Part shown: positions 4,858 to 39,501 of the stretch, piece by piece | How positions within the stretch are numbered: position 1 is the first letter of the stretch | How the letters are laid out: each line of letters opens with the position of its first letter | Made by a program: the position numbers and the translations under genes | Notes under the pieces: model-generated | What the model saw: the letters and a program-made list of their open reading frames with translations, nothing else | What the model was told of the DNA's origin: nothing | Databases searched by the model: none | Source of the DNA: an uncultured Deinococcaceae bacterium | Lineage (GTDB): Bacteria > Deinococcota > Deinococci > Deinococcales > Deinococcaceae | Assembly: GCA_964252075.1 (NCBI GenBank) | Contig: CAXULY010000001.1 | Coordinates: 32,001-96,000 of the forward strand | Direction of reading: 5' to 3' | DNA length: 64,000 bases

Positions 4858-4907
4858 AGCGGTGAGGGTCAGGCGAAGCGCCCGCGCTTCGCCTGACCCT
4901 CACCGCT
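4858..4907. terminator. Long perfect hairpin between convergent genes (probable bidirectional terminator)
   Basis: AGCGGTGAGGGTCAGGCGAAGCGC-CC-GCGCTTCGCCTGACCCTCACCGCT, 24-bp arms. Confidence 0.65.
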
Positions 4908-6930
4908 TGTACCGTTCGAGGCTCTGCTTGTCGCGGATGCGCACCTGGTACGGTCCGGCGGCGGTGCTGAGGTCCAGCATGACCGCGAGCGGCAGGGCCT
5001 CGCCCGGACGGAAGGCGCGCGAGATGTGCCGCAGGTGCATGGCGCCCTCCAGGGCGCGCAGCCGCAGGAGGCCCGGCTCGCGGCGCACCACGAGGCCCCG
5101 CAGGGCCTCCACCTGAAAGACGTCCGCGAGGTCCACGTCGTCGAGCGGCAGTTCGAGGTCCGTGCCGTGCGCGCCGTCCAGCAGCGTCACGATCACCTCG
5201 ATGGGCGGCTCGGGCGGCTGGGCGGGCCGGGGGCGCCGGACGGGGGGCGGCGCGTAGTCCGTGAAGACGTACAGCTGCCGCAGCGCGAGCGTCTCGGCGA
5301 GTTCCAGGAACACCCCTTCGTCCTGCCCGAACTTGTGCAGGCGCAGGGTGTCGGGTTGCGCCTGCAGGCGGGCGGCGCGCCGCGCGCGCTGCGCGGTGTA
5401 CTCCTTGACGCTCGTCATGTCGCTGGTGTCCAACACCACTTCGTTCTCGTCGGTGATGTCGGGCCGGTAGCGTTCGATCACGAGGCCCTGCAGGCGCCGC
5501 ACGCGGAAGAGCCGCCCGATGTCCGTCCGGCCGCGGCGCAGGAAGGCGGACACGCGTTTGCCCTGGCGGTCATGCAGGTACACGCGCAGCGAGCGGTCCA
5601 CGCTGAGCGCCCAGGGGTCCACGCGGCGGCGCGCCCAGCCGATGAGCAGCAGCAGGGCGAGCAGCAGGAGCAGCGCGAGGAGCAGCCACCACCACGGGAA
5701 GGGCCGCACGAGGACGCCCGTGAAGGGCGGCACCTTGAAGGGCGTGCGGTCGTTCAGACGCAGGGCGGGCGCGGCCTGCGCGCCGCCGGGCAGCGTGACG
5801 TTCGTGACGGTCAGGTCGGTGGTTTCGCCCTCGAGGAGGCTCACGGTTTCGTCCGGGAGGGCGGCCTTTAGCTCGGGGGGGACGGTCTGCACCTGCGCCG
5901 TCACGGGGCCGCCCACCGCCTTGTAGTGCAGCACGGCGCGCTGACCGGGGCGCAGCACGCGCAGCACGTCCGGGTTCAGGAGGCGCAGCGTGCCGAGCAG
6001 GGTGTCGGGCACGCCGGGCGCGGCCTTCTCGCCGGGGCGCCTTGGGGTGTCCTGGTCGAAGCGCAGGATCACGTTCTGGCTCGCGCCGGGCAGCACGGCG
6101 CACATGTACCCGACGCTGCCCGCCGCGACGGTGCCCTGGATGTTGAGGTTCACAGCCTCACCGCGGCCCGTGGGGTTCCGGATGCTCACGCTCGCGCCGC
6201 CGATCTGGTCGGAGTCGAGCTGCAGGCGCGTGCCGTCCGGGTGGCGGTAGGGGAAGCTGCCCTGCGGCCCCACCGTGAGCAGGGCGGGCGTGAGGTTCAG
6301 CCCGGTGAAGTCCGGCGTCTGGTGCACGGGCAGTTCGACGGCCTGCGCGAAGTTCGTTTCGCGGAAGCGCGCCTTCACGTTCGCTGGGACGCGCGTGCCG
6401 AGCGCCACGTAGTACAGCTTGTCGAAGGGGCCGCGCGACACGTTGAACGCCCCCAGCGCGCTCTCGATGCTCGCCTCGTGCGAGGGGTCGTTGTCGATGC
6501 CGTCCGTCACGACGTACACGGTGGTGGCGTAGTCATCGCGGCGCGTCAGGACGCCGAAGATGCTGACCATCGAACGGTACAGCCAGGTGTTCGCGCCGTT
6601 CGCCTGCAGGGTGTTCACGGTCCGCTCGAACTCCGCGCGTTCCTGCGGCCACTGGAAGCTCGCGCGCTGCTGCGGCCCGCGGTCGAAGGTCTGCAGTTCC
6701 ACGCTGCCAGGCGCGGTGGTGGCGCGCATACCGCGCACCATGGCGCCCTTCACGGCGGAGAAGATGTTCGCCACGCTGTCCCCTTTGCCCGCCATGGAGC
6801 CGGACGTGTCCAGCAGGAACACCACGCGGGTTTTCGTGGGGGGTGGGCTGAAGGGCAGGGTGCAGTCCTGCTGGGCGAGGACGCTGGAGGTGAGGAGGGC
6901 CACCAGCAGCAGCACGACGCGCGCGATCAT
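4900..6930 (-). CDS. vWA-domain bitopic membrane protein
   Basis: Signal peptide MIARVVLLLVALL; MIDAS DTSGS...T...VTDG; TM segment WWWLLLALLLLLALLLLIGW then RRR and a cytoplasmic tail. CATAAT lies 6 nt before ATG 6930. Confidence 0.85.
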   Translation of the reverse strand: MIARVVLLLVALLTSSVLAQQDCTLPFSPPPTKTRVVFLLDTSGSMAGKGDSVANIFSAVKGAMVRGMRATTAPGSVELQTFDRGPQQRASFQWPQERAEFERTVNTLQANGANTWLYRSMVSIFGVLTRRDDYATTVYVVTDGIDNDPSHEASIESALGAFNVSRGPFDKLYYVALGTRVPANVKARFRETNFAQAVELPVHQTPDFTGLNLTPALLTVGPQGSFPYRHPDGTRLQLDSDQIGGASVSIRNPTGRGEAVNLNIQGTVAAGSVGYMCAVLPGASQNVILRFDQDTPRRPGEKAAPGVPDTLLGTLRLLNPDVLRVLRPGQRAVLHYKAVGGPVTAQVQTVPPELKAALPDETVSLLEGETTDLTVTNVTLPGGAQAAPALRLNDRTPFKVPPFTGVLVRPFPWWWLLLALLLLLALLLLIGWARRRVDPWALSVDRSLRVYLHDRQGKRVSAFLRRGRTDIGRLFRVRRLQGLVIERYRPDITDENEVVLDTSDMTSVKEYTAQRARRAARLQAQPDTLRLHKFGQDEGVFLELAETLALRQLYVFTDYAPPPVRRPRPAQPPEPPIEVIVTLLDGAHGTDLELPLDDVDLADVFQVEALRGLVVRREPGLLRLRALEGAMHLRHISRAFRPGEALPLAVMLDLSTAAGPYQVRIRDKQSLERYKR

Positions 6931-7049
6931 GCCCGGATTATGCCGTGCCGCGCGCGGGGCCGTTCGGTGAGAGACCATGAGGGAGGTGTGAAACAGCTCA
7001 TGCCGTTCGCGCCGCCCGTTGCGGTACGGTGGGCAGAGCGAGGTATGCC

Positions 7050-10000
7050 ATGACCGAACCCGGCTTCGATTGGAGGTCGCCCGAACAGCGCGAGGATCCC
7101 CTCCGGCTCTCGGTGCGGTCCGCCACCGAACTCCTGACGCTCCCTCAGGCCGACCCCATCGCGCCCACGCTGGAGGCCGCTGAGGCGCGGTTCTTCGAGC
7201 GCGCGCCGCACGCGCAGCGCGCGCTCGCGCAGCCGGTCCTTGAGGCGGCGCGGCTGGAGCGGCAGGACGCCGCGCAGCACACGGAGCGCCGCGCGGCCCT
7301 GCAGGGCCGCGCGGAAGAACTGCGCGCCACGCTGCCGGACGGCGCGCTGGACGCCGCGCACGAGCGGGAGGCGCAGCGCCGGAACCCCGCGCTGCCGGCG
7401 CACTTCGCCACGCCGCCGCACCACCGCGCGCCGGGCGCGCGCGCGTCGGCGCAGGACTGGGTGGGCCTGTACGCCTACGAGATGCACGGTCAGCAGCAGC
7501 TGGGCGGCGCGCGCGGCATCGAGGGGCGCGCTGCCGCCGCCATTCAGCGGCGCGCCGCGACCGGCCTGAAGGACGCGTACCGCGACCTGCCGCCGGAGGG
7601 GCGCGCCGAGGGCTTCGGCGGTCAGCTCGCGGCCCTCGCGGAGTGGCCGCTGGGCGGGCAGGTGAGTCAGGCGGTCCTGGCCCGCCTGCCCGCCGGGGAG
7701 CGCGCGCGCGTGCAGGCCGCCCTGATGGGCGCGCAGCGCCAGCGCCGTGACCTCGGCAGCCAGGACGCGCGCGCCCTGGAACTGCAGGGCCTGGAGGGGC
7801 AGCTCGCGCAGGGCGTGGCGCCCCTCGCGGAGCGCCTGCCCGCGGGCCTCCCGGCGGACGTGCGGCGGCAGGTGCAGCTCGGCATGAACGCGGGTCCGGG
7901 TGCCTTCGAGGCGGCGGGCAGCGCCATGGACGGCGCGGCGCAGATCACCGCCCGCTCGCGCGGCGAACGGACCGGCAGCGTCCCGGCGCTGCCCCAGGCG
8001 GACGGCGTGGGCGCACCGAAGGGCCGGCGCGCGCCGAAGAAGGCGCCGGCCGGCGCGAAGCGCGCGACCCGCGCCAAGGACGACCCCAAAGGCAAAGCCA
8101 AGAAGGCGCCCGCGAACGCCAAGGCCGAGAAAGGCAAGGGCAAGACCACTGCGAAAGCCAAAGGGAAAGCCGCAGGCGCTAAGGCCCCGAAGGCAAACGG
8201 CAAGGCGCCCACCGCAGGTGCGCGCGCCAAGGGTGCGGCCCCGCGCGCAGGCAAGGGCGCGGCGCTGCCCACACCGGGCGCCGGGGGTGGCGCGGCGGGC
8301 GGCCCGCAGGCGCTGCGGGCCGTGCCGCTCGCCGAGATGCCCAAGGGGATCAGCGCGAAGCCCGTCCTGCAGGTGGACGGCACCGCCTTCTATGACCTCG
8401 GGCAGTGGAAGCAGCTGGAGGCGCAGGAAGCGCAGCAGGCCCGGCAGGTGCACGTCGGCACCGCCACCCGGACGGGCGCGAGCGCCCCGCAGGCCGCGCC
8501 GCGCGCGAGCACCGCGCACCCCCTGAAGCAGGTGGGGCGCACCGTGAGCGCCGCGCAGATCAAGGCCGCCGAGGCCGCCGAACGCAAGGCCGCCGAGGGG
8601 GAAATGCACGCCTTCGTGACGCGCAGCCAGGCGAAGATCAAGGCGCTGGACGGCGCCCGCCGGGCCGTCGCCCCGACCGTGCAGGCCGCCGCGAAGGGCG
8701 CGCAGGCCAAGGTGGCGGGCGCCGCGCGGACCGCCACCGCGCAGCTCGCCTCCGCCGCCGCTTCCGCCACAGCGAAGGCGCAGGCGGCCGCCGCGAGCGC
8801 CCGCACGAAAATCCAGGCGGAGTTCAGCAGCACCACCAGCGCCATCAAGGCCGCCACGCGCAGCAACCAGGCCGCCCTGAACGCCCAGCACACCGCCGCC
8901 GTCTCCGCGCTCGCGAAGGGGCTGACCAGCCTGAACAGCGGCGTCAGCTCGGCCTTCACGGCCGCGCAGGGCCGCGCGCACACCATCGGGCAGTCCGTGG
9001 GCGGCGCGGCCCTCGCGAAAGGCAACCAGCGGGCCGCCGCGTACGCCGCCGAGCCCCTCCCGCACCAGAGCGGCTGGGACAACTTCGTGAACGGCAAGGA
9101 CTACCCCGCCAAGAAACGCCAGGCGAAAGTGGACGCCGCGCGACAGGTCGGGCAGAGTTACCACGACGAGCTCATCAAGCACGCCGAGGAGTACGCCGCG
9201 AAGATCCCCGAGGGGCAGGCGCAAGTCACGGACGGCAACCAGAAGCTGCACGACGAGTACCTCAAGACCCTCGACCAGCAGCACACCGACAGCGTCACCG
9301 CGCTGCACGACGCCGAAACGCAGTTCATCCAGCAGGCCACCACCACCCGTGACCAGCAGCTGCAGGCGGTCGCGCAGCAGCTCCGCCAGGCGGTCGCGGG
9401 CATCAACCGGCAGCACACCGCCCTCAAAGGGCAGGTGCAGCAGCAGTCGAGCAGCCAGCAGGCCGCCATCAGCAAGGCCGCCGCGAGCAGCATCAGCGGC
9501 CTCCAGAAGGCCGCCGACACCGCCACCTCCGGCCTGCACAAGCAGGTGAGCGGCATTCAGGGCCAGCTGAAAGGCAAGGGCGTGCCGGACGTGCAGGCGC
9601 TCAAGGCGCAGCTGGGCACCGCCGACCAGGAAATCGCGGGCGGCGTCGCGGCCGCCCAGCAGTCCATCACGGGCGGCGCGCGCACCGCGTCCGCGCAGCT
9701 GAACGGGCAGGCGGGCAGCGCCGCCGCCGCCCTCGCGGGCACCGCCAGCCAGGGCGCCCAGGGCATGAACCAGGCGGGCGCGCAGGCGGCGAGCGCCGCC
9801 GCGCAGGTCGCGACGGGCGCCGCGCAGGCCCTCAAGGGCCTCGCGAAGGGCCACGAGGCGGCCCTCAAGGCCCTCACCGAGAAGGTCAAGAGCGGCACGC
9901 AGTCCATCCAGAAAGGCTTCGACGCCGACGCGAAGAGCGTCACGACCGGCGTGCGCGACCAGCTGAAGCAGGCGGGCGACACCTTCCAGGGCGACCTCAC

Positions 10001-13000
10001 CAAAGGCATGGCCGACGAGGACGCCAAGATCACCGAGGAGGCCAACAAGGCCGCCGACAAGGTCCAGCCGCGCTGGAAGGGCTGGGTCAGCATCGTCATC
10101 GACATCGTGATCGCCATCGCCGTGACGGCCCTCGTCATCTGCACGGGCGGCGTCGCGGGCGTGGTGCTCGGCATCGTCGCGGGCGCCGTGGGCGGCGTCC
10201 TCGGGCAGCTCGCCAAGGACGGCCTGAACGGCGAGATGTCCAGCTGGCAGACCTACGCCGCTGCGGCCCTCGGCGGCGCCATCGGCGGCGCGGTTGGCGC
10301 GGGCGGCGGCGCGCTCAGCGGGAAACTCGCGGGCATGGCGGGCGAGAAGCTCCTCGCCATGGGCGCGGGCAAGGTCGCCTCGGGCGCCGTGAAGTTCGGC
10401 GTGGACTTCGTGGGGAACAACATCACGGGCCTCGTCGGGCAGGCGGTGTCGGGCTTCATCAACAACAAGGCCTTCGGCACGCCCTTCAGCCTCTCCGACG
10501 TGTTCTCCGTCAAGAACATCGCGCAGAACGCCCTCATGACCGGCGTGGGCTCCGCCGCCGGGAAGTACTTCGAGCACAACCCCGGCGTGGTGAACCGCAT
10601 GCGCGGCATGGCGGGCTTCGGCCCGAAACCGCAGGTGCACGTCACGGCCTCGCCCGAGCACGCCGCCGCGGCGCCCGAAGGTGCGGGAACCCACGCGCCC
10701 ACCGGCAAGACCGAGGGCGCCCCAACGACCCCCAAGGGCAGCACGGAAGCACCCCGCGCGCCCACCACCGGCCGGGAGGCCCCGGTCCCGCCCGCCACCC
10801 GTGAGGCGCCCGCGCAGTCCGCGGCGCCCCGCACCACAGAAATTCCCGCGCCGCACCGCAGCAAGGCGCCGGGCGCGCCGGAGGGCCGCGGGAACACCAC
10901 GCCCCGTGCTGGGGGGAGCGAAACCACCCGGTCCGCCGGCGACCGCACCACCGAAGGCCAGACCCGCAACACGGCGCCGGAAGGGAACGCGCGCGGCGAA
11001 GGTCAGAGCCCCGAGCCCATTGCGGCCCGACACCCCGAGGGCGCGCCCGGCACTGGCGGCAAGCCTGACGTGAGCGAGCAGTTCCGCACCAACACCTTCG
11101 AGCGCAACGGCAGGACCTACGTGGAGACCACCGGGCGGCTGGGTCAGCCCGGGGAAGTGCAGACGCACCGCGATCCCTCCGCGCAGGCCCGGGTGTCCAG
11201 GGGCACCGGGGACGACGCGGGGCACCGCATTGGCGACCGCTTCGGCGCGCCCGGCGACGAGAGCAACCTCGCGCAGCAGAATTGGCGCGCGAACCGCAAC
11301 GGCACCTTCAAGCAACTGGAGAACCGCTGGGCCGCCGCCCTCAAGGACGGCGTGCAGATCGAAGCGAAAGTCACGGACATCACGCGCGCCGGCGAGACCC
11401 GCCCCTTCATGCGCCGCGCGGAGTGGACGGAAACCCACCCGGACGGCAGCGTCACGCACCACGAACTGGACTTCGCGAACACCCACACGCCGGAATCCCG
11501 CAGCAAGCAGAACATCCCGGACACCGTCAGCGAACCGCAGGCGAACAACGTGACGCACGTCGATTTCCGGAACCGCCGCGTGATCGAGGGCCCGCAGGGC
11601 CCCACGCCGCCCGAGGGCAGTGCACCCACCCGCCCCGGTAAGGCGGAGGGACGGAATGAGGGCGCACCTGAGACCGCAACTGGCGATACACCCGAAACGG
11701 TCAGCGCTCGCAACCGGCGGTCGGACGACCCGGACCTGAACCCCACGTCCGTCGCGGACCTGCCCGGCACGGTCAGCGGCACGTACGATTACACCAACCC
11801 CGGCCCGCTCTCGCCCGACAAGGCCGCCACCTTCGCCGGGCAGCGCTACAGGACCGTGAAGCTCGAACAGGACCTTGTGCTGTACCGCGTGGGTGAGGAA
11901 GGCAAACCCCTCGGGCAGTTCTTCGATACCAAGGCGCCCATGAGTGAAATCCAGGCGCGCATCGACAAGGCGGTCCTGCCGCGCTGGCCGGGCGGCGGGG
12001 AATCACCCATCCAGATGGTGCACGAGGTGCGCGTGCCCGCCGGCACCGACATCCACGTGGGCGAGGTCGCGAACCAGGGCGAGTACTACCTGGGCGGCAC
12101 CCGGCAGGTCGTCGTGATTGAACCCTGGAAGATTCCGGGGCTGGAAGTGCTGAGCAGCAAACCCGTGAACCGCATCGAGGTGCAGCCCGCCATTCCCGCC
12201 GAACGGGTCGGCGACGTGCAGCCCCTCATCGAGCGTGCCCAGGCCACGCCACCCACTGTGGACGGCGCGGGTCCCCCCACCCCGCAGGGGGGTGAGGGCG
12301 CGCCGCCCGTCAGTGCGGGCCCGAAAAGCGTGACGGCCGAGGAGCTCGCCGCTGGCCTGCCCGCGCACCTGCGCGACCGGGTGCCCGTGGAGGTCCACGC
12401 GGACCTGCCCAGCAACACGGTGCGCGTGCGGTACGAGGCGGAGAACGGCGTCATCAAGGCCGTGAAACTAGAGGCCGGGCCGCAGGCCACCCCGCGCGAC
12501 ATCGAACTGCACGCGCAGACCGTGCAGGCCATGCAGAAATATATGGGTCTGCAGGGCCGGGTGCGCGCCGCGCTCGACCGCCTCATGCGCCTCGTCGGGC
12601 TGGACGGCACGCCGAAAGTCGGGACGCGCGCGTGGGAAGCGCACCTGGAACTCCAGAAGCTGGACGGCATCATTCAGGAACGCCAGGCCGCACTCGCGGG
12701 CAGCGACGACGCCGCCACCCGAAGCCGCCTTGAGGCGGACATCCAGCACCTCGAACAGCAACTCGCGACGCACGAGGCGACCCTCGGCCGCATGGACCTG
12801 AACCCCGGTGAGGGGTACGTGGCGGCGGACGGCATCCGCAACGGCACGCACCCGAACACCCTGGAGTTCAACTTCGACCAGATCCGCAAGGACCTGTTCG
12901 GCAAGAAGGGCCGCCCCGGCTGGAGCGAGGACACCAAGCAGACCTTGAAGTCCGAGTACCCCAGCATGCACGACGCGGACACCACCAACCTCGTGCCGGG

Positions 13001-30033: not shown

Positions 30034-31620
30034 ATGCCCGAGTATCTGTCGCCAGGCGTTTACATCGAAGAGACCTCGTCCGGTCCACGTCCCATCGAGG
30101 GCATCAGCACCACGACGGCCGCCTTCATCGGATTTGCCGCGAACGGACCGGCGAACACCCCGGTGTTCATCGCCAACTGGACGCAGTACCTGGAGAACTT
30201 CGCCGCGCGTGACGCCGACGGCACCTACCAGGCGTACCTGGACGGCGCCTACCTCGCGCACTCCGTCTACGGCTACTTCAACAACGGCGGTACGCGCTGC
30301 TACGTGACGCGCCTCGTGCCGCCCCAGAAGGACGCCAAGACCGGCAAGACGGTCGACATGCCCAAGACCCTGCAGCTCCCGGCGCGCGCCTCCAAGGCCG
30401 TGTCGTCCCTGACCATCGGCTCCAAGGGCAGCCCCACCAGCGACATCAGCGTGGACATCCAGCCGCCCGCCCCGACCGAGCAGGAACCCAACCCGCAGGA
30501 AGGTACGTTCACCATCCGCGTGAAGCAGGACAACCACGAGGAAGTCTTCGACAACGTCTCCATCGCCAAGAAGCACCCCCGCAACGTCGCGGAGGTCATC
30601 AACCAGCAGAGCACCCTCATTGAGGTGGTGGAGCAGAGCACCGTCGGTTCCCTCGCGGAGCGCACCCCGGAGTTCGGGAACTTCGTCATTCACTCCACCA
30701 TGACGCCCACCGACGGTGGCCTCATGGTGAAGAGCAACGACTTCATCGGCAGCGTCCACGACCGCAGCGGCATCGACGGCATGGAAGTCGCCGAGGACGT
30801 CAGCATGATCTGCGCGCCGGACCTCATGAGCGCCTACCAGAATGGCCTCCTCGACGAGATGGGCGTCAAGGCCGTGCAGCGCGCCATGATCGACCACTGC
30901 GAGCGCAACCACAACCGCATCGCGATCCTCGACCCGCTGCCCGACCTGAACCCGCAGCAGGTGAAGCGCTGGCGCGAGCACGAGACGAACTTCGACTCCA
31001 GCTACGCCGCCGTGTACTACCCGTGGATCAAGATCAACGGCCCGGACGGCAAGCCGCTCCTCGTGCCGCCCAGCGGGCACGTCGCGGGCATCTACGCTCG
31101 CAACGACGTGGAGCGCGGCGTGCACAAGGCGCCCGCCAACGAGGTGGTGCGCGGCGCGCTCGACCCCGCCATGCAGATCACCAAGAGCGAACAGGACATC
31201 CTGAACCCCATCGGCGTGAACTGCATCCGCACCTTCACTGGCATGGGCATCCGCGTGTGGGGCGCGCGCACCCTCTCCAGCGACGCCCGCTGGCGCTACG
31301 TGTCCGTGCGGCGCCTGTTCAACTACGTGGAGAAGAGCATCGAGCGCGGCACCCAGTGGGCGGTGTTCGAGCCGAACGACGACGAGCTGTGGGCGAAACT
31401 CCGCCGCGACGTCACGGCCTTCCTGACCATCGTGTGGCGCAGCGGCGCGCTGTTCGGCAAGACCGCCGGCGAGGCCTTCTACGTGAAGTGCGACGCCGAA
31501 CTGAACACCCCGGAAGTGCGCGACCTCGGCATGGTGTTCATCGAGATCGGCATCGCGCCCGTGAAGCCCGCCGAGTTCGTGATCTTCAAGTTCAGCCAGT
31601 ACGCCGGCGGCGGCTCCTGA
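30034..31620 (+). CDS. Contractile tail sheath protein
   Basis: MPEYLSPGVYIEE, YGYFNNGG, YAAVYYPW, PPSGHVAG, GVHKAPANE, RVWGARTL, FEPND, APVKPAEFV. Confidence 0.96.
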   Translation: MPEYLSPGVYIEETSSGPRPIEGISTTTAAFIGFAANGPANTPVFIANWTQYLENFAARDADGTYQAYLDGAYLAHSVYGYFNNGGTRCYVTRLVPPQKDAKTGKTVDMPKTLQLPARASKAVSSLTIGSKGSPTSDISVDIQPPAPTEQEPNPQEGTFTIRVKQDNHEEVFDNVSIAKKHPRNVAEVINQQSTLIEVVEQSTVGSLAERTPEFGNFVIHSTMTPTDGGLMVKSNDFIGSVHDRSGIDGMEVAEDVSMICAPDLMSAYQNGLLDEMGVKAVQRAMIDHCERNHNRIAILDPLPDLNPQQVKRWREHETNFDSSYAAVYYPWIKINGPDGKPLLVPPSGHVAGIYARNDVERGVHKAPANEVVRGALDPAMQITKSEQDILNPIGVNCIRTFTGMGIRVWGARTLSSDARWRYVSVRRLFNYVEKSIERGTQWAVFEPNDDELWAKLRRDVTAFLTIVWRSGALFGKTAGEAFYVKCDAELNTPEVRDLGMVFIEIGIAPVKPAEFVIFKFSQYAGGGS

Positions 31621-31699: not shown

Positions 31700-32146
31700 A
31701 TGACCGTACCGCACAAAGACCCGTTGGTGGCCGCCTACTTCGCCGTTGATTTCCAGAACGGGGTGCAGGGCGCCTTCCGCGAATGCACCGGCCTGGGCTC
31801 GGAGAGCCAGGTCGTGGAGTACCGCGCGACCGACGAGCGCGGCAAGCCCGTGCTGATCCGCGAGCCCGGCACCATGAAGTACACGGACATCACCCTCAAG
31901 CGCGGCATCACGGACAGCATGGACATGTGGCAGTGGCGCCGTCAGGTTGAGGACGGCGACATCGAGGGCGCGCGCCGCAGCGGCACCATCACGCTGTACA
32001 ACCAGCGCGGCGAAGCCATCGCCCGCTGGACCTTCGAGCGCGCGTGGCCGCAGAAGCTCAACGGCCCCACGTACGACGCCAAGACCAACGAAGTCGCCAT
32101 CGAGGAACTCACCATCACCCACGAAGGCTACAAGCGCGTGCAGTAA
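31700..32146 (+). CDS. Tail tube protein (T4 gp19-like, Afp1 equivalent)
   Basis: F.ECTGL, ITLKRGIT, WTFERAWPQKL.GP and IEELTITHEG; GGAGG SD. Confidence 0.94.
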   Translation: MTVPHKDPLVAAYFAVDFQNGVQGAFRECTGLGSESQVVEYRATDERGKPVLIREPGTMKYTDITLKRGITDSMDMWQWRRQVEDGDIEGARRSGTITLYNQRGEAIARWTFERAWPQKLNGPTYDAKTNEVAIEELTITHEGYKRVQ

Positions 32147-32198
32147 CGCGGGACGCGGGGGCGGCGTGTCGCCGCCCCCACCCCGCCAGGAGACGGCC

Positions 32199-32654
32199 GT
32201 GACCGCCAATGCGCTGCCCACCCAATTTGAATTCACGCTGCCGCTCGGCCTGACCGACGCGGCAGGTCGCGTTCACCGCCGCGGCGTCATGCGCCTCGCC
32301 ACCGCCCTCGACGAAGTCGAACCGCTCGGCGACGCCCGCGTCAAGGACAACGAGGCCTTCCTCGGCATCCTGCTCCTCAGCCGCGTCACGCTGCGCCTCG
32401 GCGACTACGCACCCGTCGGGCCCGACATGATCGCCGCGCTGTACGCCAGCGACTTCGCGTACCTGCAGAGCGTGTACGCCGCCGTGAACGCCCCCGGCCC
32501 GAACGCGCTGCCCACCGCGCTGCCCGCCCAGGGGAGCCCCACCGCCACGCTGCCCAGCAGCCTGGAGACGGTGTGCCCGCACTGCGGCACCGAACTCATC
32601 CTTGACCTCGATCCCCCCACCGACCACCGCACCGAGGAGGCGTACCGCGCATGA
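32199..32654 (+). CDS. CIS-associated tail assembly chaperone-like protein
   Basis: AGGAG SD, GTG 32199; TQFEFTLPLG...G.VHRRGVMRLATALDE...LLSRV...DFAYLQ..Y...N and C-terminal CPHCG. Confidence 0.8.
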   Translation: MTANALPTQFEFTLPLGLTDAAGRVHRRGVMRLATALDEVEPLGDARVKDNEAFLGILLLSRVTLRLGDYAPVGPDMIAALYASDFAYLQSVYAAVNAPGPNALPTALPAQGSPTATLPSSLETVCPHCGTELILDLDPPTDHRTEEAYRA

Positions 32655-32824
32655 CGCAACCGGGAACAGGAACCCAGACGGCCAAAGCGCCCACCGTGGC
32701 GTCCAACGTCCCGGACGCCCACATCGACCTGCAGAAACTCGCGGAGAAGGTCTACCGCCTCTTCATGGAGGACTTGCGCATCCAGCAGAACCGCGTGTGG
32801 GGCGGCCGGAAGGGACACTTCTAA
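32651..32824 (+). CDS. Small CIS protein (57 aa), absent from the ORF track
   Basis: GAGGAGG SD, ATGA overlap with the upstream stop, TAA abutting the next ATG. MTQPGTGTQTAKAPTVASNVPDAHIDLQKLAEKVYRLFMEDLRIQQNRVWGGRKGHF. Confidence 0.8.
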   Translation: MTQPGTGTQTAKAPTVASNVPDAHIDLQKLAEKVYRLFMEDLRIQQNRVWGGRKGHF

Positions 32825-33274
32825 ATGCCTGCCGTCAAGGAAAACCAGAGCATCCCCGTCCTCAACGCCAACTGCCGCTACTACGTGCAGATCGACGGCG
32901 CGAACAAAGCAGTGTTTTCAGAGGTCGGCGGTCTACAAATGGAGACTGAACTTTTCGAATACGCCGAGGGCGGCAACAACGAATACGTGCACCGCCTCCC
33001 CGGACTGTCCAAGGTCGGGAACCTGACCCTCAAGCGCGGCATCACCGTCGACAACGAACTCTTCAAGTGGTACCTGCGCATCGCGCAGGGCATCATGGAC
33101 CTGCGCACCGTCACCATCACCGTGTACGCCACCAGCGGCGAGAAGGTCGTGCGCTGGGAACTCCTGAAGGCCTTCCCCTGCAAGTGGACGGGCCCGCAGA
33201 TGGCCGCGAACGGCGAGACCGTCGCGCTCGAAACCATCGAGATCGCGCACATGGGCGTCATCGCGGTCGACTGA
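32825..33274 (+). CDS. Second tail tube protein (gp19-like, Afp5 equivalent)
   Basis: FSEVGGL, YAEGGNN..VHRLPG, LTLKRGI, AFPCKWTGP and LETIEIAH. Confidence 0.94.
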   Translation: MPAVKENQSIPVLNANCRYYVQIDGANKAVFSEVGGLQMETELFEYAEGGNNEYVHRLPGLSKVGNLTLKRGITVDNELFKWYLRIAQGIMDLRTVTITVYATSGEKVVRWELLKAFPCKWTGPQMAANGETVALETIEIAHMGVIAVD

Positions 33275-33367: not shown

Positions 33368-36300
33368 ATGCCGAACACCCCGTTCCAGAAGCGCGCCGAC
33401 TGGCTGCAACACTACCGCGAGCACTTCACCGTCATCTTCGGCGACCTTCGCCCCGCCGCGCCCCTCGTCGCGCCCTGGCCCGGCGCCGCCCCCACCGTGC
33501 CCGCCGCGCCACAGGTGGCCCCGCGCTGGCGCGTCACCGCGCGCGTGAAAGCCCCACCTGGACTGCAGGATGACCCTGGCGCCGCCCTGTGGGACCAGCA
33601 GGAAAGCGCAGTTGCACCCGCGCCCGACCTGCCCGCGTCGTGGCCCATGGAGGCCAGCCCGGCGCCCACGCGCACCGAGCCGCTCGCACCCATCAGCGCC
33701 CCAACACCACCTCAGCCGGTGCCCAATTGGCAGGCCGCGCCAGACGCCTCCCAGTCCGCCGCGCAGGCGGACGTGGTGCCCACCGGGTGGGCGCCGAGTC
33801 CAGCGCCGCAGCCGACTGAACCCGTCCCCAGCGCCACGCCGCCCTACTTCACGCCGGTGGCCGCGCCACCCGCTGCCCTTTCCCCCGCACCTCAGGGAGG
33901 CAGCCCGGTTGGGGTGCCAGCACCCGACGGTTATCCAGGCCCTCCCACGCCGCTTGAGCCGCGCCTCCCCGGCGAGGTGGAAGCTGAGCGGCGCGCCGCC
34001 GCCGCCCGGCGCCCCTCCGGCCAGCTGAGCTTCTCGGAGTTGCTGGCCTTCCGGCAGCAGGCGAGCGACGCCACACCGAGCGCCCCCGCGTCCCCCGCGC
34101 CTTTCGGCGCGCTCGGCGACGTGTGGCAGCGTGACGAAGGACCCGCGACCAGCGACCACAACGCATCCGGCGCGACCAACGTGACGACCGGGCAGACGTT
34201 CCGCTCGCCTCCCCCCGTCTTCGATCCCGCCCTCGTCGTGCCGGATCTCAAAGACCAACTGCAAGGGGCTACTTCGACCGTCGCCCCTCAGGTGACTGCG
34301 ACGGCGCACGCCGAGCAGACTGGGTCACCTGCGCCGACAGCCCCAATGCCAGCCGTACCTCCGCAGGATGCTGTTGGTGCTGTGCAGGCCCGAGCAGCAG
34401 CACAGCCCACACTCCCCACACGGGATGAGGCGTCGCCTGCAGACGTGGCAGCTGTTTCCGAACCAGTTTCGGCAGCTAGGCCTCACATTCCAATCGCGAC
34501 TCCTGGCGTCCCCCCAGCGCCAATTCAACCTCGCCCGGACGTGGCGCAGGAGCGGATTGAGGCCAACGCTGAATTCGACGGCGGCGAAGCGCCAGTGCCC
34601 CCTTATATGGCCACTCCAGCCATCGGCGACCCCGCTGGCGCCGTGGTGAACACGCCCACCGCTGCGTTCGCCGTGCCACCCGAACCGAACGTGCAGCCTC
34701 AGACGCCCATCACCGCGAACGCCGCAGGAACGGAGCCACCCGCACGGGAGGCGGCCATGCGCGCGCCCGAACCCGCGAACGCCGGGAGCAGCCCCGCTGA
34801 GCAGGCCGCGGTGGAAGACGGCCCGCCTGTGGGGTTCAATGAGCCGTACCGGGCGGTGGACACGGACTTCCGGGCGGCGGCGCTGCGGGCGGCGGGACCG
34901 GTGTCGCCGGACGTGCAGGTGATCCTGCCGCGCCGCGCGCGCCCGGTGCCGTTCGTGCCGGGCGGCAAGAAAGCGCCGGAGCCGGAGTTGCCGGCGCACA
35001 GCGAAGCGCAGGTGCAGGGGTGGCTGAGTCGCCTGAACCGGGTGGCGGAAGGGGAGGCGAGCGGGGGTGTGCAGGGGCGGCCCCTGTCGCTCGCGGAACT
35101 GCTCACCTGGGACCGCGACCACTCCAGAACCGCAGGCGCGCCGGACGCTCAGGACGCCCCGCCACAAGATGCCGTCGGTGGCACCACGGTGGAAGTCGTA
35201 TCCGTTCCGAACGCGGCGCCAACGGCGGAGGGCCACCCCGCAGAAGTCATGGCTTCGCAGGACGCTCAACCCACTCCCGTTAATGCTCCTGGCTTCCTGC
35301 CTGCGGACGTTCCGAGTGCTCATCCGTTGCCCGCGAGCGTTTCTGAGACGGCGGGGTGGGCACCGCTTCCTCCGCAGGCGCCTGTCACCACCCAAGGGCA
35401 GGCTTCACCCATCCCAGGTGTGAAGGTTGCGCGCATCAAGCAGCCCGATGCCCCCGCGCTCGACCGTGCAGCACCCAATTCGCCCTCAATCGGTCCTCGT
35501 GCTCCCGCAACGCAGAATCCAGCCCAGGCCACAGCGCGTCAAACGGCAGCGCCGACGGAAGGGCGAGACGACGGCAGGCCAGCGCCCGCCACGCCCACTG
35601 AACTGAGTGCCGCTGGTGTTCCGGCGTCGCCGCTCAGTGGTCCTGAGTTGAGCCCATCGAATGCTGACTTTCAGGGACTTGCAGAGGCGTCAGTCCAATC
35701 CAGCGCACCGGGAGCCACCGAGTCGCTTGCGCCAGGACCAGAGCAATCCGCCCTGCATCCGCCGGCACCCAGCGTGCGAGGTGACCTAGAGGTCAGCGCC
35801 GCTCAGCCCAGTGAAGCGGCACTGCTGGCGCGAGCCACTGCACCGAGCGAACAATCGGGGGCGTCTAGCCTAAGTGGTGGCCTCGCGCAGACACAGGCCG
35901 CGACTGAGGTCAATTCGGGACCGCCCGCACTCACGAGGGAAAGGGACGCGGTGCCCGACGCGCCCTCCATCGTGGATGCACAGGCTGCTCAGCAGGCACT
36001 CAGTGCTGCGACGCCCGTCACCAGCGTGACGCCCGCAACTGGAGCGGTCCAGCCCGATCAGTCAACACCCGCGAGTGACCTCGACACGACGCCACATGCG
36101 GCGCCAGCCCATGACGCAGCTCAGTCCAATCAGCCTCCACCCTCGGCGAGTGACCTCGGCACGAGGTCACTCGCGGTGTCCATCCCTCGTGCTGCGGACA
36201 GTCACACTGAACGCACAAGCCCTGAGGGCAGAGCTGACCTTCGTGCCGCCATTCCCGACGCGCCCATGCCAACTCAGGTTGCCGGAGATATCACAGTAGC

Positions 36301-38299
36301 CTCGACTCAGCCTGAAACGGTCGGTGAGGTTGCGACGCCAGGGTGGGACGACCGGTCCACCGCGGCCTCCGAACCTGGCGCGCGACCTATGGCGGTACCT
36401 CCAGTGCAAGCCGAAGCCAGTGCTGCACCCTCATCAAACGATGCATCACCTGACAGCCTGCCGCCTGTGGGGTTCAATGAGCCGTACCGGGCGGTGGACA
36501 CGGACTTCCGGGCGGCGGCGCTGCGGGCGGCGGGACCGGTGTCGCCGGACGTGCAGGTGATCCTGCCGCGCCGCGCGCGCCCGGTGCCGTTCGTGCCGGG
36601 CGGCAAGAAAGCGCCGGAGCCGGAGTTGCCGGCGCACAGCGAAGCGCAGGTGCAGGGGTGGCTGAGTCGCCTGAACCGGGTGGCGGAAGGGGAGGCGAGC
36701 GGGGGTGTGCAGGGGCGGCCCCTGTCGCTCGCGGAACTGCTCACCTGGGACCGCGACCACCCCAGGACCGCAAGCACGCCGGACGCTCAGGACCCCCCGC
36801 CACATAATGAAGTCGGTGACACCACGGCGCCTGCGGCGGCCAGCCCTGAAGTTGGGGCACCTCATGCAGTGACGGAGACCCTCCCGACGTCACCTCTTAA
36901 TGAGGCAGCGTCGCTCCCCCAGCACGCGGCACCGTCACTGGTCAACGGCTCGCCCGCGCCCGCTCCTGGGGTGCCAGCGCCAGTTATGCCACACCTGCAG
37001 CAGCCAGCCCAGACTGCTCGCGCTGCAGCCCAAGATGCTCCGCCGGTCCCGCCGGCCAAGGCGGCGCCAGCTCGTCCTGCGCCACCAACCATTGATCGCC
37101 CGGACGCGGGGCCAGCAACGCCAGCGATGCCGCCGCAGACTGACATCCGGGCCAGCGTCGCCCCGGTGGTTCCCCTGAAAGCTCAGATACCAGAGGACAG
37201 CCCAAGGCATGAGGCAACGCCCGTGCGGTCCGCAGAGGCAGCGGTCGCTCCCACTCCAGCGGCGCCCTCAGCGTCGGCCGTGATGCCCGACGCTTCGCAG
37301 GCTGACGCGCCCAATGTGGGGACAGAGCGCCCAAAAGCCGCCGGGGTCAGGGGAAGCGCGGGCGCGCCCGCCGCTGACGCTGGCCCCATCGTGAATGCGG
37401 CGCTTCCCGTCGTCGGTCCCGCGCGCATCGCGGATCCGGTGAGCGCGGCGCCATTACCCGTGCCGGGCCTGCAGCGGGTCCGCAGCCGCGCCCGCGTGGA
37501 GCGCGCCCTCGCCCAGCCGGAAGCGCGCGAGCCGCTGCCCCTGCAGGCCCGCGCGCGGCTCGCCCCGCTGCTCGGCGCGGACGTGAGTGGCGTGCACGTG
37601 GTGCGGGACGCCCGCGCCGCTGAGGCGGTGGCAGAGGTCGGCGCGGACGCACTCGCGGTGGGGGACACCGTCCTGCTGGGTGCCGGGCAGGACCTGAGCT
37701 CACCACAGTCGCTGGCGCTGCTGGCGCACGAGTTGACGCACGTGCTGCGCGAGCGGCAGCCGGGTTTCGTGCCCGCCAGCGTGCGGCGTCAGACGAGGTC
37801 CGCGCGCCTGGACGAGGAGACCCTCGCGGAACGCGTGGAGGGACAGGTGCGTCAGCGCCTTCAAGCCGCCCGCCCCGCCGAGTCCCCTCGCCCGACGGCC
37901 GGTGCGGCGCCCTCGCCCTCAGAGTGGAACGGCCTGCCCGCTCCCTGGGACCCCATGCCGCACTGGGAGGCGCCCGCGACGAATGAGGCGCCCCGGCAGG
38001 CGGCCCCCCGCGCTGCCGCAGCTGCGCCCGCTCCGTTGGCGTCCGCGCCGGCGGCACCTGCCGCTGCGGCGCCGTTTGCTTCTGGTGCGCGGGCGGCCAG
38101 CTCGGCGCGTTCCGTGGCGAGTTCGGATTCTGGTTCGGACTCGGCGGGCGCTGGGGGCTCGGAGGTCGCGCAGGGGCCGGCCGTGGGTTTCGATCACCGC
38201 AAGACGAACCGCAACGCGCCGGACCTCGACCGGCTCGCCGTGCAGATTTACGCCATCCTCAAACGGCGCCTGAGTGACGAGATGCGCCGCATCCGTTAG
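33368..38299 (+). CDS. Large Pro/Ala-rich protein with C-terminal DUF4157 (eCIS core) domain
   Basis: PLP...R.RL...LGADVSGVHV...GADALAVGD...LLAHELTHV...E.LA, and C-terminal PDLDRLAVQIYAILKRRL. Confidence 0.85.
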   Translation: MPNTPFQKRADWLQHYREHFTVIFGDLRPAAPLVAPWPGAAPTVPAAPQVAPRWRVTARVKAPPGLQDDPGAALWDQQESAVAPAPDLPASWPMEASPAPTRTEPLAPISAPTPPQPVPNWQAAPDASQSAAQADVVPTGWAPSPAPQPTEPVPSATPPYFTPVAAPPAALSPAPQGGSPVGVPAPDGYPGPPTPLEPRLPGEVEAERRAAAARRPSGQLSFSELLAFRQQASDATPSAPASPAPFGALGDVWQRDEGPATSDHNASGATNVTTGQTFRSPPPVFDPALVVPDLKDQLQGATSTVAPQVTATAHAEQTGSPAPTAPMPAVPPQDAVGAVQARAAAQPTLPTRDEASPADVAAVSEPVSAARPHIPIATPGVPPAPIQPRPDVAQERIEANAEFDGGEAPVPPYMATPAIGDPAGAVVNTPTAAFAVPPEPNVQPQTPITANAAGTEPPAREAAMRAPEPANAGSSPAEQAAVEDGPPVGFNEPYRAVDTDFRAAALRAAGPVSPDVQVILPRRARPVPFVPGGKKAPEPELPAHSEAQVQGWLSRLNRVAEGEASGGVQGRPLSLAELLTWDRDHSRTAGAPDAQDAPPQDAVGGTTVEVVSVPNAAPTAEGHPAEVMASQDAQPTPVNAPGFLPADVPSAHPLPASVSETAGWAPLPPQAPVTTQGQASPIPGVKVARIKQPDAPALDRAAPNSPSIGPRAPATQNPAQATARQTAAPTEGRDDGRPAPATPTELSAAGVPASPLSGPELSPSNADFQGLAEASVQSSAPGATESLAPGPEQSALHPPAPSVRGDLEVSAAQPSEAALLARATAPSEQSGASSLSGGLAQTQAATEVNSGPPALTRERDAVPDAPSIVDAQAAQQALSAATPVTSVTPATGAVQPDQSTPASDLDTTPHAAPAHDAAQSNQPPPSASDLGTRSLAVSIPRAADSHTERTSPEGRADLRAAIPDAPMPTQVAGDITVASTQPETVGEVATPGWDDRSTAASEPGARPMAVPPVQAEASAAPSSNDASPDSLPPVGFNEPYRAVDTDFRAAALRAAGPVSPDVQVILPRRARPVPFVPGGKKAPEPELPAHSEAQVQGWLSRLNRVAEGEASGGVQGRPLSLAELLTWDRDHPRTASTPDAQDPPPHNEVGDTTAPAAASPEVGAPHAVTETLPTSPLNEAASLPQHAAPSLVNGSPAPAPGVPAPVMPHLQQPAQTARAAAQDAPPVPPAKAAPARPAPPTIDRPDAGPATPAMPPQTDIRASVAPVVPLKAQIPEDSPRHEATPVRSAEAAVAPTPAAPSASAVMPDASQADAPNVGTERPKAAGVRGSAGAPAADAGPIVNAALPVVGPARIADPVSAAPLPVPGLQRVRSRARVERALAQPEAREPLPLQARARLAPLLGADVSGVHVVRDARAAEAVAEVGADALAVGDTVLLGAGQDLSSPQSLALLAHELTHVLRERQPGFVPASVRRQTRSARLDEETLAERVEGQVRQRLQAARPAESPRPTAGAAPSPSEWNGLPAPWDPMPHWEAPATNEAPRQAAPRAAAAAPAPLASAPAAPAAAAPFASGARAASSARSVASSDSGSDSAGAGGSEVAQGPAVGFDHRKTNRNAPDLDRLAVQIYAILKRRLSDEMRRIR
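34823..35122 (+). repeat. Copy 1 of 300-bp intragenic direct repeat
   Basis: Identical by eye to 36461-36760; in frame (offset 1638 nt). Confidence 0.92.
36461..36760 (+). repeat. Copy 2 of 300-bp intragenic direct repeat
   Basis: Identical by eye to 34823-35122; imperfect similarity continues for about 65 nt more. Confidence 0.92.
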
Positions 38300-38310
38300 C
38301 GGAGGACCGC

Positions 38311-39501
38311 ATGACCCTGGAACCCCAGCGCCGCGAGGCGGAAGACGAGCAGCGCCCCCCCACGTCGCGGGAGGGGCTCACGCCCGAGCGTGACCCGAAA
38401 CGTGTGAAGCCCGAGGACGGGCAGGGGAGCCCCGCGCCACTCCGCGCGCCGAGCCCGCGCCTGCAGTACGCCTCGCCGGACCTGCAACGCCCGGCGAGTG
38501 CGGAACTGCCGCGGGACCGCCTCACGGCCCTCACGCGCGCCGCGCTGGAGGCGCTGGGCGGCAGCGAGGAGCGCGCGCTGTTGTTCACGCCGGAGGAGGA
38601 CGTCCTGACGCGCCTCGTGAATGACGAGAGCCTGGACCTCACCCCGCGCAGCGACCTCACGCCCCTGATTCCCGAGGAGCAGAGCCGCGGACTGAGCGGT
38701 TCCGGCAAGCAGGAAGGCAAGGCGTTCGAGGAGGACTTCCGGCGGGAAGCGGAACTCAAGCCGGACGACCTGGAGGACATCGCGCGCGAGCGCCGCGAAC
38801 TCGTGCAGCAGTACTACGCGCACCAGGGGCACGCGCTCGTGGACCAGGCGGAACTCACCCAGCTCGTCGGCGCGCCCACAGCGCAGGCAGCCCCCGAGCG
38901 GGAACCGGATGGGGCAGATGGGGCACCCGCTGAACAACCGCATGCCGGCGAGGCCGGACGCGCGGTTAGCGCGGCGGACGTCCTGCGCACCGAGGGCGGG
39001 GAGCGCGCGTTGCAGGCCGTGACGCAGCGCCTCGCAACGGGCTTTCAGCAGTGGCTGCGGCAGGAGGGGCACTGGCACAAGCGCAGCGAGTGGCTCAAGA
39101 AGCACCTCGCGCGCACGTGGGAGTACGCGGCGGACGCCCTGAACCCGCACACGCTGCTGCTCGCGCCCAAAGGGCACAGCCGCTTCGCGAGCTTCGTGCA
39201 GGCGGAATCGCCCGACCCAGAACTGCAGAACGACAAGCTCCCCGAGAAGGACCGCTCCGCCCGGAAGGACGAGGCCCGGGAGCGCACGCGGCGCGCCGCG
39301 AAGAACGGTCAGTTCGAACGGCAGATCAAGGAGGCGCGCCGCGCGGTCATCACCGCCACCACGAAGACCATCATGATGAGCTGGGCGGACGCACGCGACC
39401 CCTCCTGGCACCTCGACGCCACACCCGACGACGCGACCGCTGGCCTGAAGAGCCCCCAGAACCACGCCATCGAGGCGTGGCTGACGGGCGCGAACACCTG
39501 A
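38311..39501 (+). CDS. Hypothetical protein, last gene of the sheath operon
   Basis: GGAGG SD 11 nt after the previous stop; charged, predicted helical; no family recognised. Confidence 0.75.
   Translation: MTLEPQRREAEDEQRPPTSREGLTPERDPKRVKPEDGQGSPAPLRAPSPRLQYASPDLQRPASAELPRDRLTALTRAALEALGGSEERALLFTPEEDVLTRLVNDESLDLTPRSDLTPLIPEEQSRGLSGSGKQEGKAFEEDFRREAELKPDDLEDIARERRELVQQYYAHQGHALVDQAELTQLVGAPTAQAAPEREPDGADGAPAEQPHAGEAGRAVSAADVLRTEGGERALQAVTQRLATGFQQWLRQEGHWHKRSEWLKKHLARTWEYAADALNPHTLLLAPKGHSRFASFVQAESPDPELQNDKLPEKDRSARKDEARERTRRAAKNGQFERQIKEARRAVITATTKTIMMSWADARDPSWHLDATPDDATAGLKSPQNHAIEAWLTGANT

Follow-up and report, generated by a model that had tools for sequence, protein, structure and literature searches.

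The window analysed here, 64,000 nt of an uncultured Deinococcaceae bacterium (assembly GCA_964252075.1, contig CAXULY010000001.1, positions 32,001–96,000 of the forward strand), carries at 4900–39501 the gene island of a contractile injection system (CIS). In its baseplate operon lies the gene of a bitopic membrane protein that combines a decayed kinase-like domain with a forkhead-associated (FHA) domain and that, from co-occurrence and synteny, belongs to the CIS. Our preferred reading, to which we give a probability of about one half, is that of a cytoplasmic CIS with a CisA-like membrane adaptor or trigger that reads phosphothreonine. How cytoplasmic CISs reach the membrane and become triggered is a question that CisA answers for Streptomyces only. 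The kinase–FHA gene, found in the baseplate operon at every locus examined, is a conserved candidate for such a link, and its logic can be read from its parts: a dead kinase, an FHA domain that is live as judged by its residues, a stalk that would span the envelope and a tip with a ligand-type fold.

The pseudokinase–FHA membrane protein

We surveyed 125 Deinococcaceae genomes, the window's own included. The sheath was matched in 44 other genomes of the family, as near-full orthologues at 58–82% identity in 34, as a distant type covering the C-terminal half only in nine and as a fragment in one incomplete genome. The segment of the membrane protein that runs from the FHA domain through an Ig-like domain to the transmembrane (TM) helix is present in all 34 genomes with a near-full sheath orthologue, and in only one of the 90 family genomes free of such an orthologue, where the match is weak (G122, 26% identity). 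The gene order Cis9–Cis11–Cis12(FHA)–kinase/FHA–Cis7–VgrG is kept in 22 of 22 loci (20 loci and two plasmids), although in one of these genomes the sheath gene lies 283 kb away. A survey of the phylum (364 genomes) found the same segment in 10/19 and 2/68 genomes of two other Deinococcota families, with the kinase–FHA gene adjoining Cis12(FHA) in seven of eight loci, the eighth being interrupted by a contig end. In Chloroflexota, the pairing recurs within full CIS clusters at both loci found (Thermogemmatispora and Anaerolineae). A scan of genome contigs with distant kinase homologues returned mostly generic kinases, with CIS genes at 2/79 loci. An earlier reading of this DNA made from its letters alone (hereafter the sequence-only reading) had counted the membrane genes and an FHA-fused wedge with the CIS. 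Co-occurrence and synteny support this for the kinase–FHA gene and its FHA-fused neighbour; for the second membrane gene, which encodes a vWA protein, linkage to the CIS is confined to the closest subclade (see below).

In Afp/PVC-type loci the gene that follows Cis12 encodes the tail fibre, and the kinase–FHA gene thus occupies the fibre slot of the operon. In the window, the Cis12 stop codon overlaps the kinase–FHA start codon as ATGA, a translational coupling of the two genes, and the same overlap is found in 14 of 22 relatives by our own start calls. Two close relatives (L013 and L015) differ from most loci in having about 1.5 kb between Cis12 and the pseudokinase gene instead of an overlap.

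The kinase-like domain (residues 39–297) and the FHA domain (residues 367–420) both lie N-terminal to a single TM helix located within residues 697–735, as do Ig-like domains with a Pfam match at residues 472–537. The outer part comprises about seven Ig-like repeats, four of them recognized by a strict pattern and the others by eye, and two proline-rich linkers, and it ends in a conserved domain with two conserved cysteines. A model of the last 200 residues (18-row alignment) shows an Ig domain followed by an eight-stranded barrel, with a predicted local distance difference test score (pLDDT) of 90. When the barrel was compared with 48,161 chains using VIA-align, avidins came out on top (streptavidin 6gmi_A, Z 11.5, root-mean-square deviation 2.5 over 99 residues), followed by zebavidin and the Cap15 barrel, both at Z 11.1; a Foldseek search of the tip model against the PDB gave no match at E <= 0.001. 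An avidin-like, ligand-type fold carried on a stalk of a length sufficient to span the envelope is no more than suggestive. A threonine-rich N-terminal tail was considered as a possible ligand of the FHA domain and was dropped, the tail not being conserved in relatives.

For the kinase and FHA motifs we used definitions from general background. In the window and its 22 relatives the β3 lysine is an arginine (23/23), the αC glutamate is not kept and HRD is replaced by HGN (16/23, including the window) or HGD (7/23), with DFG retained. The label 'pseudokinase' given in the sequence-only reading is therefore justified. Homologues from the other Deinococcota families have HAD, HGD, HGQ, HWQ or HGE in the catalytic loop, often together with a corrupted DFG. 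AxK, HRD and DFG are intact in 13 of 16 distant homologues and in two of the three Chloroflexota genes, namely that of Thermogemmatispora and one of two tandem Anaerolineae genes, so that the homologues form an evolutionary series from active kinase to a pseudokinase tied to a phage-tail machine. The FHA domain of the membrane protein shows the opposite picture: 20 of 23 family sequences retain GR, SRxH and NG[ST] (the other three have NPS in place of NG[ST]), as do all 16 distant homologues and 11 of 11 further genes. The loss of the kinase motifs together with the retention of the FHA residues indicates that catalysis decayed while the reading of phosphothreonine remained under selection, and a dead kinase with a conserved FHA domain implies that the phospho-ligand is written by another kinase.

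The tandem genes lie at 10019–14602 of an Anaerolineae metagenome-assembled genome locus (L035), directly after Cis12(FHA); the first is intact, and the second reads HRS and DFS. They may represent an ancestral pair of one active and one dead kinase.

System identity and published relatives

Open reading frames (ORFs) were chosen by their third-position G+C because the window has a G+C content of 70%, and the ORFs of the island were scanned with Pfam, NCBIfam and PHROGs. The core CIS set is complete: one phage-type sheath, Cis1, Cis5, Cis7, VgrG, gp25, PAAR, Cis11, Cis12, an AAA ATPase and Cis16. No capsid, terminase, lysis, fibre or tape-measure family was matched in the scanned island ORFs, and neither the Cis13 tail fibre gene nor the tape-measure gene of Afp/PVC-type extracellular CISs (eCISs) is among them. 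A type VI secretion system (T6SS) can be rejected, given the phage-type sheath and the absence of any Tss family (TssB/TssC, TssJLM or ClpV) from the island ORFs, the rest of the genome not having been searched for these families. The scans thus bear out the sequence-only reading of a full tail-like set devoid of capsid, terminase, lysis, fibre and TssJLM genes; its gene list holds for the items it contained and was incomplete, since the PAAR protein and a tail-assembly-chaperone-like ORF had been missed. The latter sits between the tube and Cis5 genes, a position kept in relatives.

The sheath gene is present in a single copy in the whole genome. Its product is 48–50% identical to Streptomyces and Kitasatospora sheaths, which are the best non-Deinococcus matches among plasmid records, and 64% identical over residues 170–528 to the sheath of the Thermogemmatispora locus. 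Judging from gene content and sequence identity, the locus encodes a Streptomyces-like CIS with a single sheath and no fibres, as had been suggested, and probably falls in the Chloroflexota/Deinococcota clade of lineage IId.

CISs of this kind were published in 2026. CIS clusters of Chloroflexota and Deinococcota make up a clade of lineage IId next to Streptomyces, and sheaths have been purified from D. grandis, D. aquatilis, Calidithermus and Thermogemmatispora (Gaisin et al., 2026, ISME J, PMC12998442). The sequence-only reading, which knew of no characterized example in Deinococcus, is superseded on this point. Gene set and gene order in this clade are the same as in the window. By cryo-electron tomography, D. 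aquatilis particles lie unattached in the cytoplasm and are 365 ± 39 nm long; purified particles of the relatives are nearly all contracted, which the authors read as an instability unlike that of eCISs. According to the authors the mechanism may differ in this clade because it has no close cisA homologues, as noted for Roseiflexus (PMC12998442). From the imaging of these relatives, the best reading for the window's CIS, known here from its genes, is that its particles are cytoplasmic. Both D. grandis (locus on pDEGR-1) and D. aquatilis (protein P0023) encode a kinase–FHA homologue, so the candidate gene is present in species whose particles have already been purified. The words 'kinase' and 'FHA' do not occur in the main text of PMC12998442 and have no relevant occurrence in one supplement, and the paper does not treat the membrane pseudokinase, the FHA–Cis12 fusion, the vWA protein or the toxin cassette. 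Literature searches pairing CIS with FHA, kinase or forkhead-associated, whose scope excluded subscription papers and the supplements of eCIS databases, returned only T6SS or unrelated papers. As far as these searches show, the pseudokinase–FHA partner, the FHA–Cis12 fusion, the FHA fold in the vWA protein and the family of toxin N-domains treated below have not been described in the literature covered.

The D. grandis plasmid pDEGR-1 also carries, beside its intact locus, a decayed partial second CIS copy (L002, 28289–32525), in which the sheath is broken up over several frames and accompanied by part of the tube, gp25 and Cis16. In L002, Cis12 is split in two frames, and the deposited annotation fuses the tube and the DUF4157 end into a 1259-aa coding sequence.

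The closest functional comparison is CisA of the S. coelicolor system CISSc. CisA, which is bitopic, has its N-terminus inside and is encoded in the cluster; it is required for contraction and firing, is not found in the purified particle and is predicted to contact Cis11, its role being transient (Casu et al., 2025, PMC12237407). Most of its cytoplasmic part lacks structure, and the part outside is similar to a substrate-binding domain, while CISSc itself has no fibres and no tape-measure gene and has a fixed length of 268 nm (PMC12237407). The window's CIS is likewise single-sheathed, without a fibre and without a recognizable tape measure, and its kinase–FHA protein is likewise bitopic, with its N-terminus inside and its gene in the cis cluster. 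The likeness to CisA seen here is one of topology and place, and the domain make-up differs: the kinase–FHA protein has a pseudokinase, an FHA domain and Ig domains inside, and an Ig stalk with an avidin-like barrel outside.

Possible docking and triggering, and the FHA folds

In the reading that we prefer, a fibre-less particle would assemble in the cytoplasm, and the stalk tip of the kinase–FHA protein would read a cue from the envelope or from outside, to be relayed as a phosphothreonine mark by some other kinase. The protein would then bind the baseplate through Cis12 or Cis11, drawing the particle to the membrane and making it contract. A membrane protein with a vWA domain outside and an FHA fold inside would join the module in the nearest relatives. 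The cargo would be a 2208-aa toxin. We infer these steps, along with cargo loading and immunity; what the analysis shows is which genes are present, how they are conserved and ordered, the states of the motifs, and the folds. A complex prediction for Cis12 and residues 30–700 of the pseudokinase protein (19-row alignments) scored 0.01 and carries no weight either way.

Three FHA folds converge on this one system. Besides that of the membrane protein, Cis12 carries an N-terminal FHA domain (Pfam E 8.3e-12). Of 43 plasmid records matching Cis12, only five cover this part, all of them from Deinococcus, and those from Streptomyces and others match from residue 118 or later. By these matches the FHA fusion is specific to the clade, Streptomyces Cis12 having no such domain. 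The third is found in the vWA membrane protein, whose 240-aa cytoplasmic tail has a mean column identity of 66%. In the model of this tail (pLDDT 85.5) the last 95–100 or so residues adopt an FHA fold that superposes on the FHA domain of YscD (4a0e_A; VIA-align Z 10.3, root-mean-square deviation 2.3 over 89 residues). The matches of this part are almost all to FHA domains: the other chains with Z >= 8 were likewise read as such, and that of EssC reaches Z 7.4. Foldseek ranked 4a0e_A first with a probability of 1.0 and an E value of only 0.025, no match to the tail model being found in the PDB at E <= 0.001, and Pfam gave no sequence-level FHA match for the tail. The fold calls made here therefore rest on VIA-align and on Foldseek ranking, with the first module of the vWA tail barely covered by the fold searches. 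The resemblance to the FHA-fold cytoplasmic domains of YscD/PscD (type III secretion) and EssC (type VII secretion) is one of fold only, the partner domains being different. Full-length vWA orthologues are restricted to 10 of 124 family genomes; nine are on the contig of the sheath gene, seven of these within 0.5 kb of it, and the remaining vWA matches are paralogues. We therefore regard the vWA protein as an accessory of the nearest subclade. The idea that it is part of a 'ternary conflict system' was set aside, as the published description, in the part drawn on here, does not fit the present arrangement.

Several observations weigh against a phosphothreonine-gated adaptor. The phosphate-contacting serine of the SxxH motif in the Cis12 FHA domain is an alanine in the window and in 22 of 22 relatives, with GR kept, and the FHA fold of the vWA tail lacks, by eye, the canonical phosphothreonine residues, so that phosphate may not be needed by two of the three FHA folds. 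Recognition of phosphothreonine, another element of the sequence-only reading, is accordingly supported by conserved residues for the FHA domain of the membrane protein and not for that of Cis12. No kinase able to write the mark was found among the island ORFs, nor was a PP2C phosphatase. A fold held in common does not by itself reveal function. In another Deinococcota family, two loci (L121 and L122) hold Cis12(FHA) paired with the pseudokinase but no further recognized CIS gene in the 15–20 kb examined, and the pair is there either an orphan or set in a very divergent neighbourhood. Finally, the D. aquatilis particles are unattached even though this species encodes a kinase–FHA homologue, and any docking is therefore not constitutive. 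The cell-attached CIS of the sequence-only reading, taken as a constitutively docked machine, is not supported by the published tomograms (PMC12998442); a transient recruitment of the CisA kind is possible.

One alternative is that the kinase–FHA protein is an assembly regulator that senses the envelope and licenses or blocks the baseplate through its FHA domain, with firing taking place elsewhere or upon lysis. The T6SS offers the model, with a pathway made up of the PpkA kinase, the PppA phosphatase and Fha1/TagH, and with Fha and TssL in Agrobacterium. The precedent of threonine phosphorylation by PpkA acting with an Fha protein is documented in PMC3953482. As in that pathway, a membrane protein of the Ser/Thr kinase type and FHA domains are tied to a contractile machine, and NCBIfam gives weak TagH-type matches for both FHA domains (those of the membrane protein and of Cis12). 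A regulatory role would also agree with the apparently active kinases, by motifs, of the Chloroflexota relatives and with particles lying free in the cytoplasm. Unlike in the T6SS pathway, however, none of the 23 family sequences has a live kinase, the motifs being those of a protein not catalytically competent even though the phosphothreonine-binding residues of the membrane protein's FHA domain are intact; the island has no phosphatase; and FHA domains are fused to the wedge and to the kinase itself. Moreover, the fibre slot and the start/stop overlap with Cis12 suggest a stoichiometric structural partner and not a catalytic regulator. We consider such a regulator unlikely.

Still less probable, in our view, is a true eCIS released by lysis to strike other cells, in which the membrane and vWA proteins would serve release or self-protection and the toxin–immunity genes bacterial competition. 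Antagonism between cells would fit a PAAR–VgrG spike, toxin ends that are polymorphic and genes that may confer immunity, and an effector–immunity pair is reported for a related actinobacterial system (PMC13277306). Against this, the island contains no fibre or receptor-binding gene and no lysis genes were found in it, and the contracted state of nearly all purified particles of the relatives was read by the authors as an instability unlike that of eCISs (PMC12998442). As the imaging of relatives speaks against permanent attachment and the role of CisA is likewise transient, we rank the adaptor or trigger first, the assembly regulator second and the eCIS third.

We may also wonder whether the membrane protein is an 'inside-out tail fibre', a baseplate-bound receptor reaching through the whole envelope by means of its Ig stalk and an avidin-like ligand pocket which, with FHA–Cis12 and the vWA protein, would form a phosphothreonine-gated docking platform; the machine would fire outward in response to a cue from outside and deliver DUF4157-type toxins to neighbouring cells. 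We hold this to be a doubtful proposition; it is kept alive by the possible immunity genes and by the polymorphic toxin ends, which lean towards neighbours as targets. Were it true, the decay of the kinase from Chloroflexota to Deinococcota would mark a shift from signalling enzyme to structural anchor, and outward firing would mean that a T6SS-like action had evolved independently in a lineage now thought to be intracellular only.

The giant protein, its neighbours and the gene map

The putative cargo is a giant protein of 2208 residues encoded to the left of VgrG, the modules of which are listed in Table 1. An exhaustive search of 1.84 billion representatives found its N-domain in 40 proteins, always at the N-terminus. 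We scanned 32 of the 39 others, leaving out seven shorter than 570 aa, and in 32 of 32 eCIS_core (DUF4157) stands directly behind the N-domain. Their C-terminal ends are varied, and many are toxin domains: TNT and AHH occur twice each, and CHAP, ART, Zeta toxin, muramidase and lipase are among the rest. Of the 34 family genomes with the CIS, 19 hold the N-domain, as against 3 of the 90 without it; these genomes are kin, and the counts are not independent. This small family thus marks CIS toxins in Deinococcus, and the assignment of the giant protein to the CIS-toxin class in the sequence-only reading agrees with it.

In its layout the giant protein resembles Sle1, an effector that combines a coiled coil related to tape measures with a TM hairpin and an end that varies. 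Sle1 is packaged in the particle and has the DUF4157 protein Sle2 as its partner; one actinobacterial example pairs a nucleic-acid-directed toxin with a downstream immunity gene (Nagakubo et al., J Bacteriol 2026, PMC13277306). A coiled coil, a TM helical hairpin and a variable, nuclease-type C-terminal end are all present in the giant protein, with small genes downstream. Unlike the DUF4157 toxins, it has lost DUF4157, stacks at least three C-terminal modules and bears the rare N-domain. At least seven genomes (G046, G014, G073, G048, G021, G009 and G104) have a homologue of the coiled-coil/TM part within or next to the CIS locus, and two relatives (L109 and L110) have the same vWA–giant arrangement as the window. 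Eight giant homologues are linked to the locus, of which three have eCIS_core and one an AHH nuclease. The last module (residues 1930–2207) is also carried by two shorter DUF4157 toxins elsewhere. Atlas look-ups yielded nothing usable for the N-domain and, in the case of the last toxin domain, no more than weak leads to clusters of GH-E/HNH and GmrSD_C (0.84–0.87), and the only PDB match to the giant protein by sequence is EssD (E 0.13).

The giant protein is likely to be a polymorphic CIS toxin of the DUF4157/Sle1 type and the putative cargo. The assignment stays at 'likely' because the protein has lost its own DUF4157 domain, the sole one of the genome residing in the 1643-aa protein encoded 20 kb away in the same island. 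This absence of eCIS_core sets the protein apart from its relatives and counts against it as cargo, as does the position of the giant gene outside the core operons. The five small ORFs packed tightly behind it (13659–16171) most likely include the immunity of the toxin and are candidates by position; here too there are points on the other side, since none of the five products matched a known immunity family in Pfam or NCBIfam or had a homologue in the DNA beside related toxins. With polymorphic ends and possible immunity genes, we lean towards neighbours and not the producer as the target.

It is conceivable that the giant gene and its small neighbours form an unrelated polymorphic toxin cassette, whose product is exported or used by another route. 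The genes lie on their own strand, outside the core operons and between the vWA and VgrG genes, the protein has no eCIS_core, and the N-domain is found in three of the 90 CIS-free genomes, with many homologues far from the CIS. Yet the N-domain is otherwise always fused to eCIS_core (32/32) and is enriched with the CIS (19/34 versus 3/90), the vWA–giant arrangement is repeated in L109 and L110, and the architecture is Sle1-like, so that we doubt this explanation. We find it harder still to believe that the main role of the giant protein, or else of the DUF4157 protein of 1643 aa, is that of a tape measure for an unusually long tail, with toxin ends a secondary matter. This would account for the chaperone-like gene between tube and Cis5 and for the long helical region and hydrophobic Gly-rich segment of the giant protein; D. 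aquatilis particles measure 365 nm (PMC12998442), and Sle1-type effectors are remote relatives of tape measures (PMC13277306). However, CISSc has its fixed length of 268 nm without a tape-measure gene (PMC12237407), the DUF4157 protein is Pro/Ala-rich and not helical, and many relatives have no giant homologue at the locus.

One genome (G115) has 13 copies of the N-domain on ORFs of about 700–1300 aa, four of them with an in-frame TAG. Over window positions 8001–10000, which cover the Lys/Ala-rich stretch and helical part of the giant gene, the plus strand has an AT skew of +0.50.

Table 1. Genes of the CIS island (window coordinates) and modules of the giant protein (residue numbers)
Feature	Position	Strand	Evidence or remark
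vWA membrane protein, 692 aa	4900–6978	-	Pfam VWA_2; signal-like N-terminus; outer vWA with DxSxS; TM aa 421–453
Giant putative CIS cargo toxin, 2208 aa	7029–13655	+	Database gene call starts at ATG 7050
Giant protein, N-domain (~260 aa)	aa ~45–310		Common with DUF4157 toxins
Giant protein, Lys/Ala-rich stretch, then long helical coiled coil	after N-domain		Weak Apolipoprotein-like match
Giant protein, hydrophobic TM hairpin	aa 1016–1063		TM segments
Giant protein, Endonuclea_NS_2	aa 1380–1459		Pfam E 7.5e-11
Giant protein, two further modules	C-terminal part to aa 2208		No family
Small ORF, 167 aa	13659–14162	+	Starts 3 nt past toxin stop; weak HEAT_2, 22.5 bits, below cut-off
Small ORF, 150 aa	14196–14648	+	DUF6966
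Small ORF, 133 aa	14651–15052	+	No family
Small ORF, 231 aa	15055–15750	+	No family above cut-off
Small membrane ORF, 144 aa	15737–16171	+	Two TM segments
Spike, VgrG-related (Cis8)	16187–17845	-	NF033848, 322.8 bits, above cut-off; Phage_base_V
Tube initiator/spike hub (Cis7-like, CIS_tube)	17846–18421	-	PF19266 E 4.9e-30
Bitopic membrane pseudokinase–FHA protein, 1488 aa	18462–22928	-	Tail-fibre slot of operon
Baseplate wedge Cis12, N-terminal FHA and Tail_P2_I	22925–23809	-	Pfam
Baseplate wedge Cis11 (Baseplate_J)	23806–25992	-	TIGR02243, 391 bits
gp25-like sheath initiator (Cis9)	25827–26246	-	Pfam
AAA+ ATPase (Cis15-like)	26396–28450	-	Pfam/NCBIfam
Cap/tail terminator (Cis16, Pvc16_N)	28481–29356	-	Pfam
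PAAR spike tip (Cis10)	29308–29601	-	PF05488 E 2.4e-22
Sheath (Cis2)	30034–31620	+	Pfam/NCBIfam; matches Phage_sheath_1 and 1C
Inner tube (Cis1)	31700–32146	+	Pfam/NCBIfam
Tail-assembly-chaperone-like ORF, C-terminal Cys pair	32163–32654	+	phrog_508 E 2.3e-4
57-aa ORF	32651–32824	+	No family
Tube adaptor (Cis5)	32825–33274	+	NF053770 E 4.4e-30
Pro/Ala-rich eCIS core protein, 1643 aa	33368–38299	+	DUF4157 at aa 1389–1464
Charged 396-aa protein	38311–39501	+	No family

The core genes are arranged in two sets on opposite strands. The minus-strand set comprises PAAR, the Cis16 cap, the AAA ATPase, gp25, Cis11, FHA–Cis12, the 1488-aa kinase–FHA protein, Cis7 and VgrG, and the plus-strand set the sheath, the tube, the chaperone-like ORF, the 57-aa ORF, Cis5, the 1643-aa DUF4157 protein and the 396-aa protein; the giant gene, the five small genes downstream of it and the vWA membrane gene all lie to the left of VgrG. 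The true start of Cis11 is probably near 25821, since orthologues align from about residue 58. Weak homologues of the 396-aa protein follow the DUF4157 gene in three relatives. The DUF4157 gene itself contains a perfect 300-nt direct repeat (34823–35122 and 36461–36760, 1638 nt apart), encoding a block of about 100 residues that is present twice in the protein; it could permit changes of length by recombination, or stem from a collapse of the assembly.

The genes flanking the island are housekeeping genes, namely a methylmalonyl-CoA mutase gene on the left (2657–4303) and, on the right (39570–44071), genes for an SRPBCC protein, a response regulator and succinyl-CoA ligase. The G+C content of the island, 0.66–0.74, resembles that of its flanks. 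Outside the island, a minus-strand ORF of 3151 aa (49404–58859) has a C-terminal TamB domain (E 6.6e-31) and encodes a giant protein of the envelope-assembly type.

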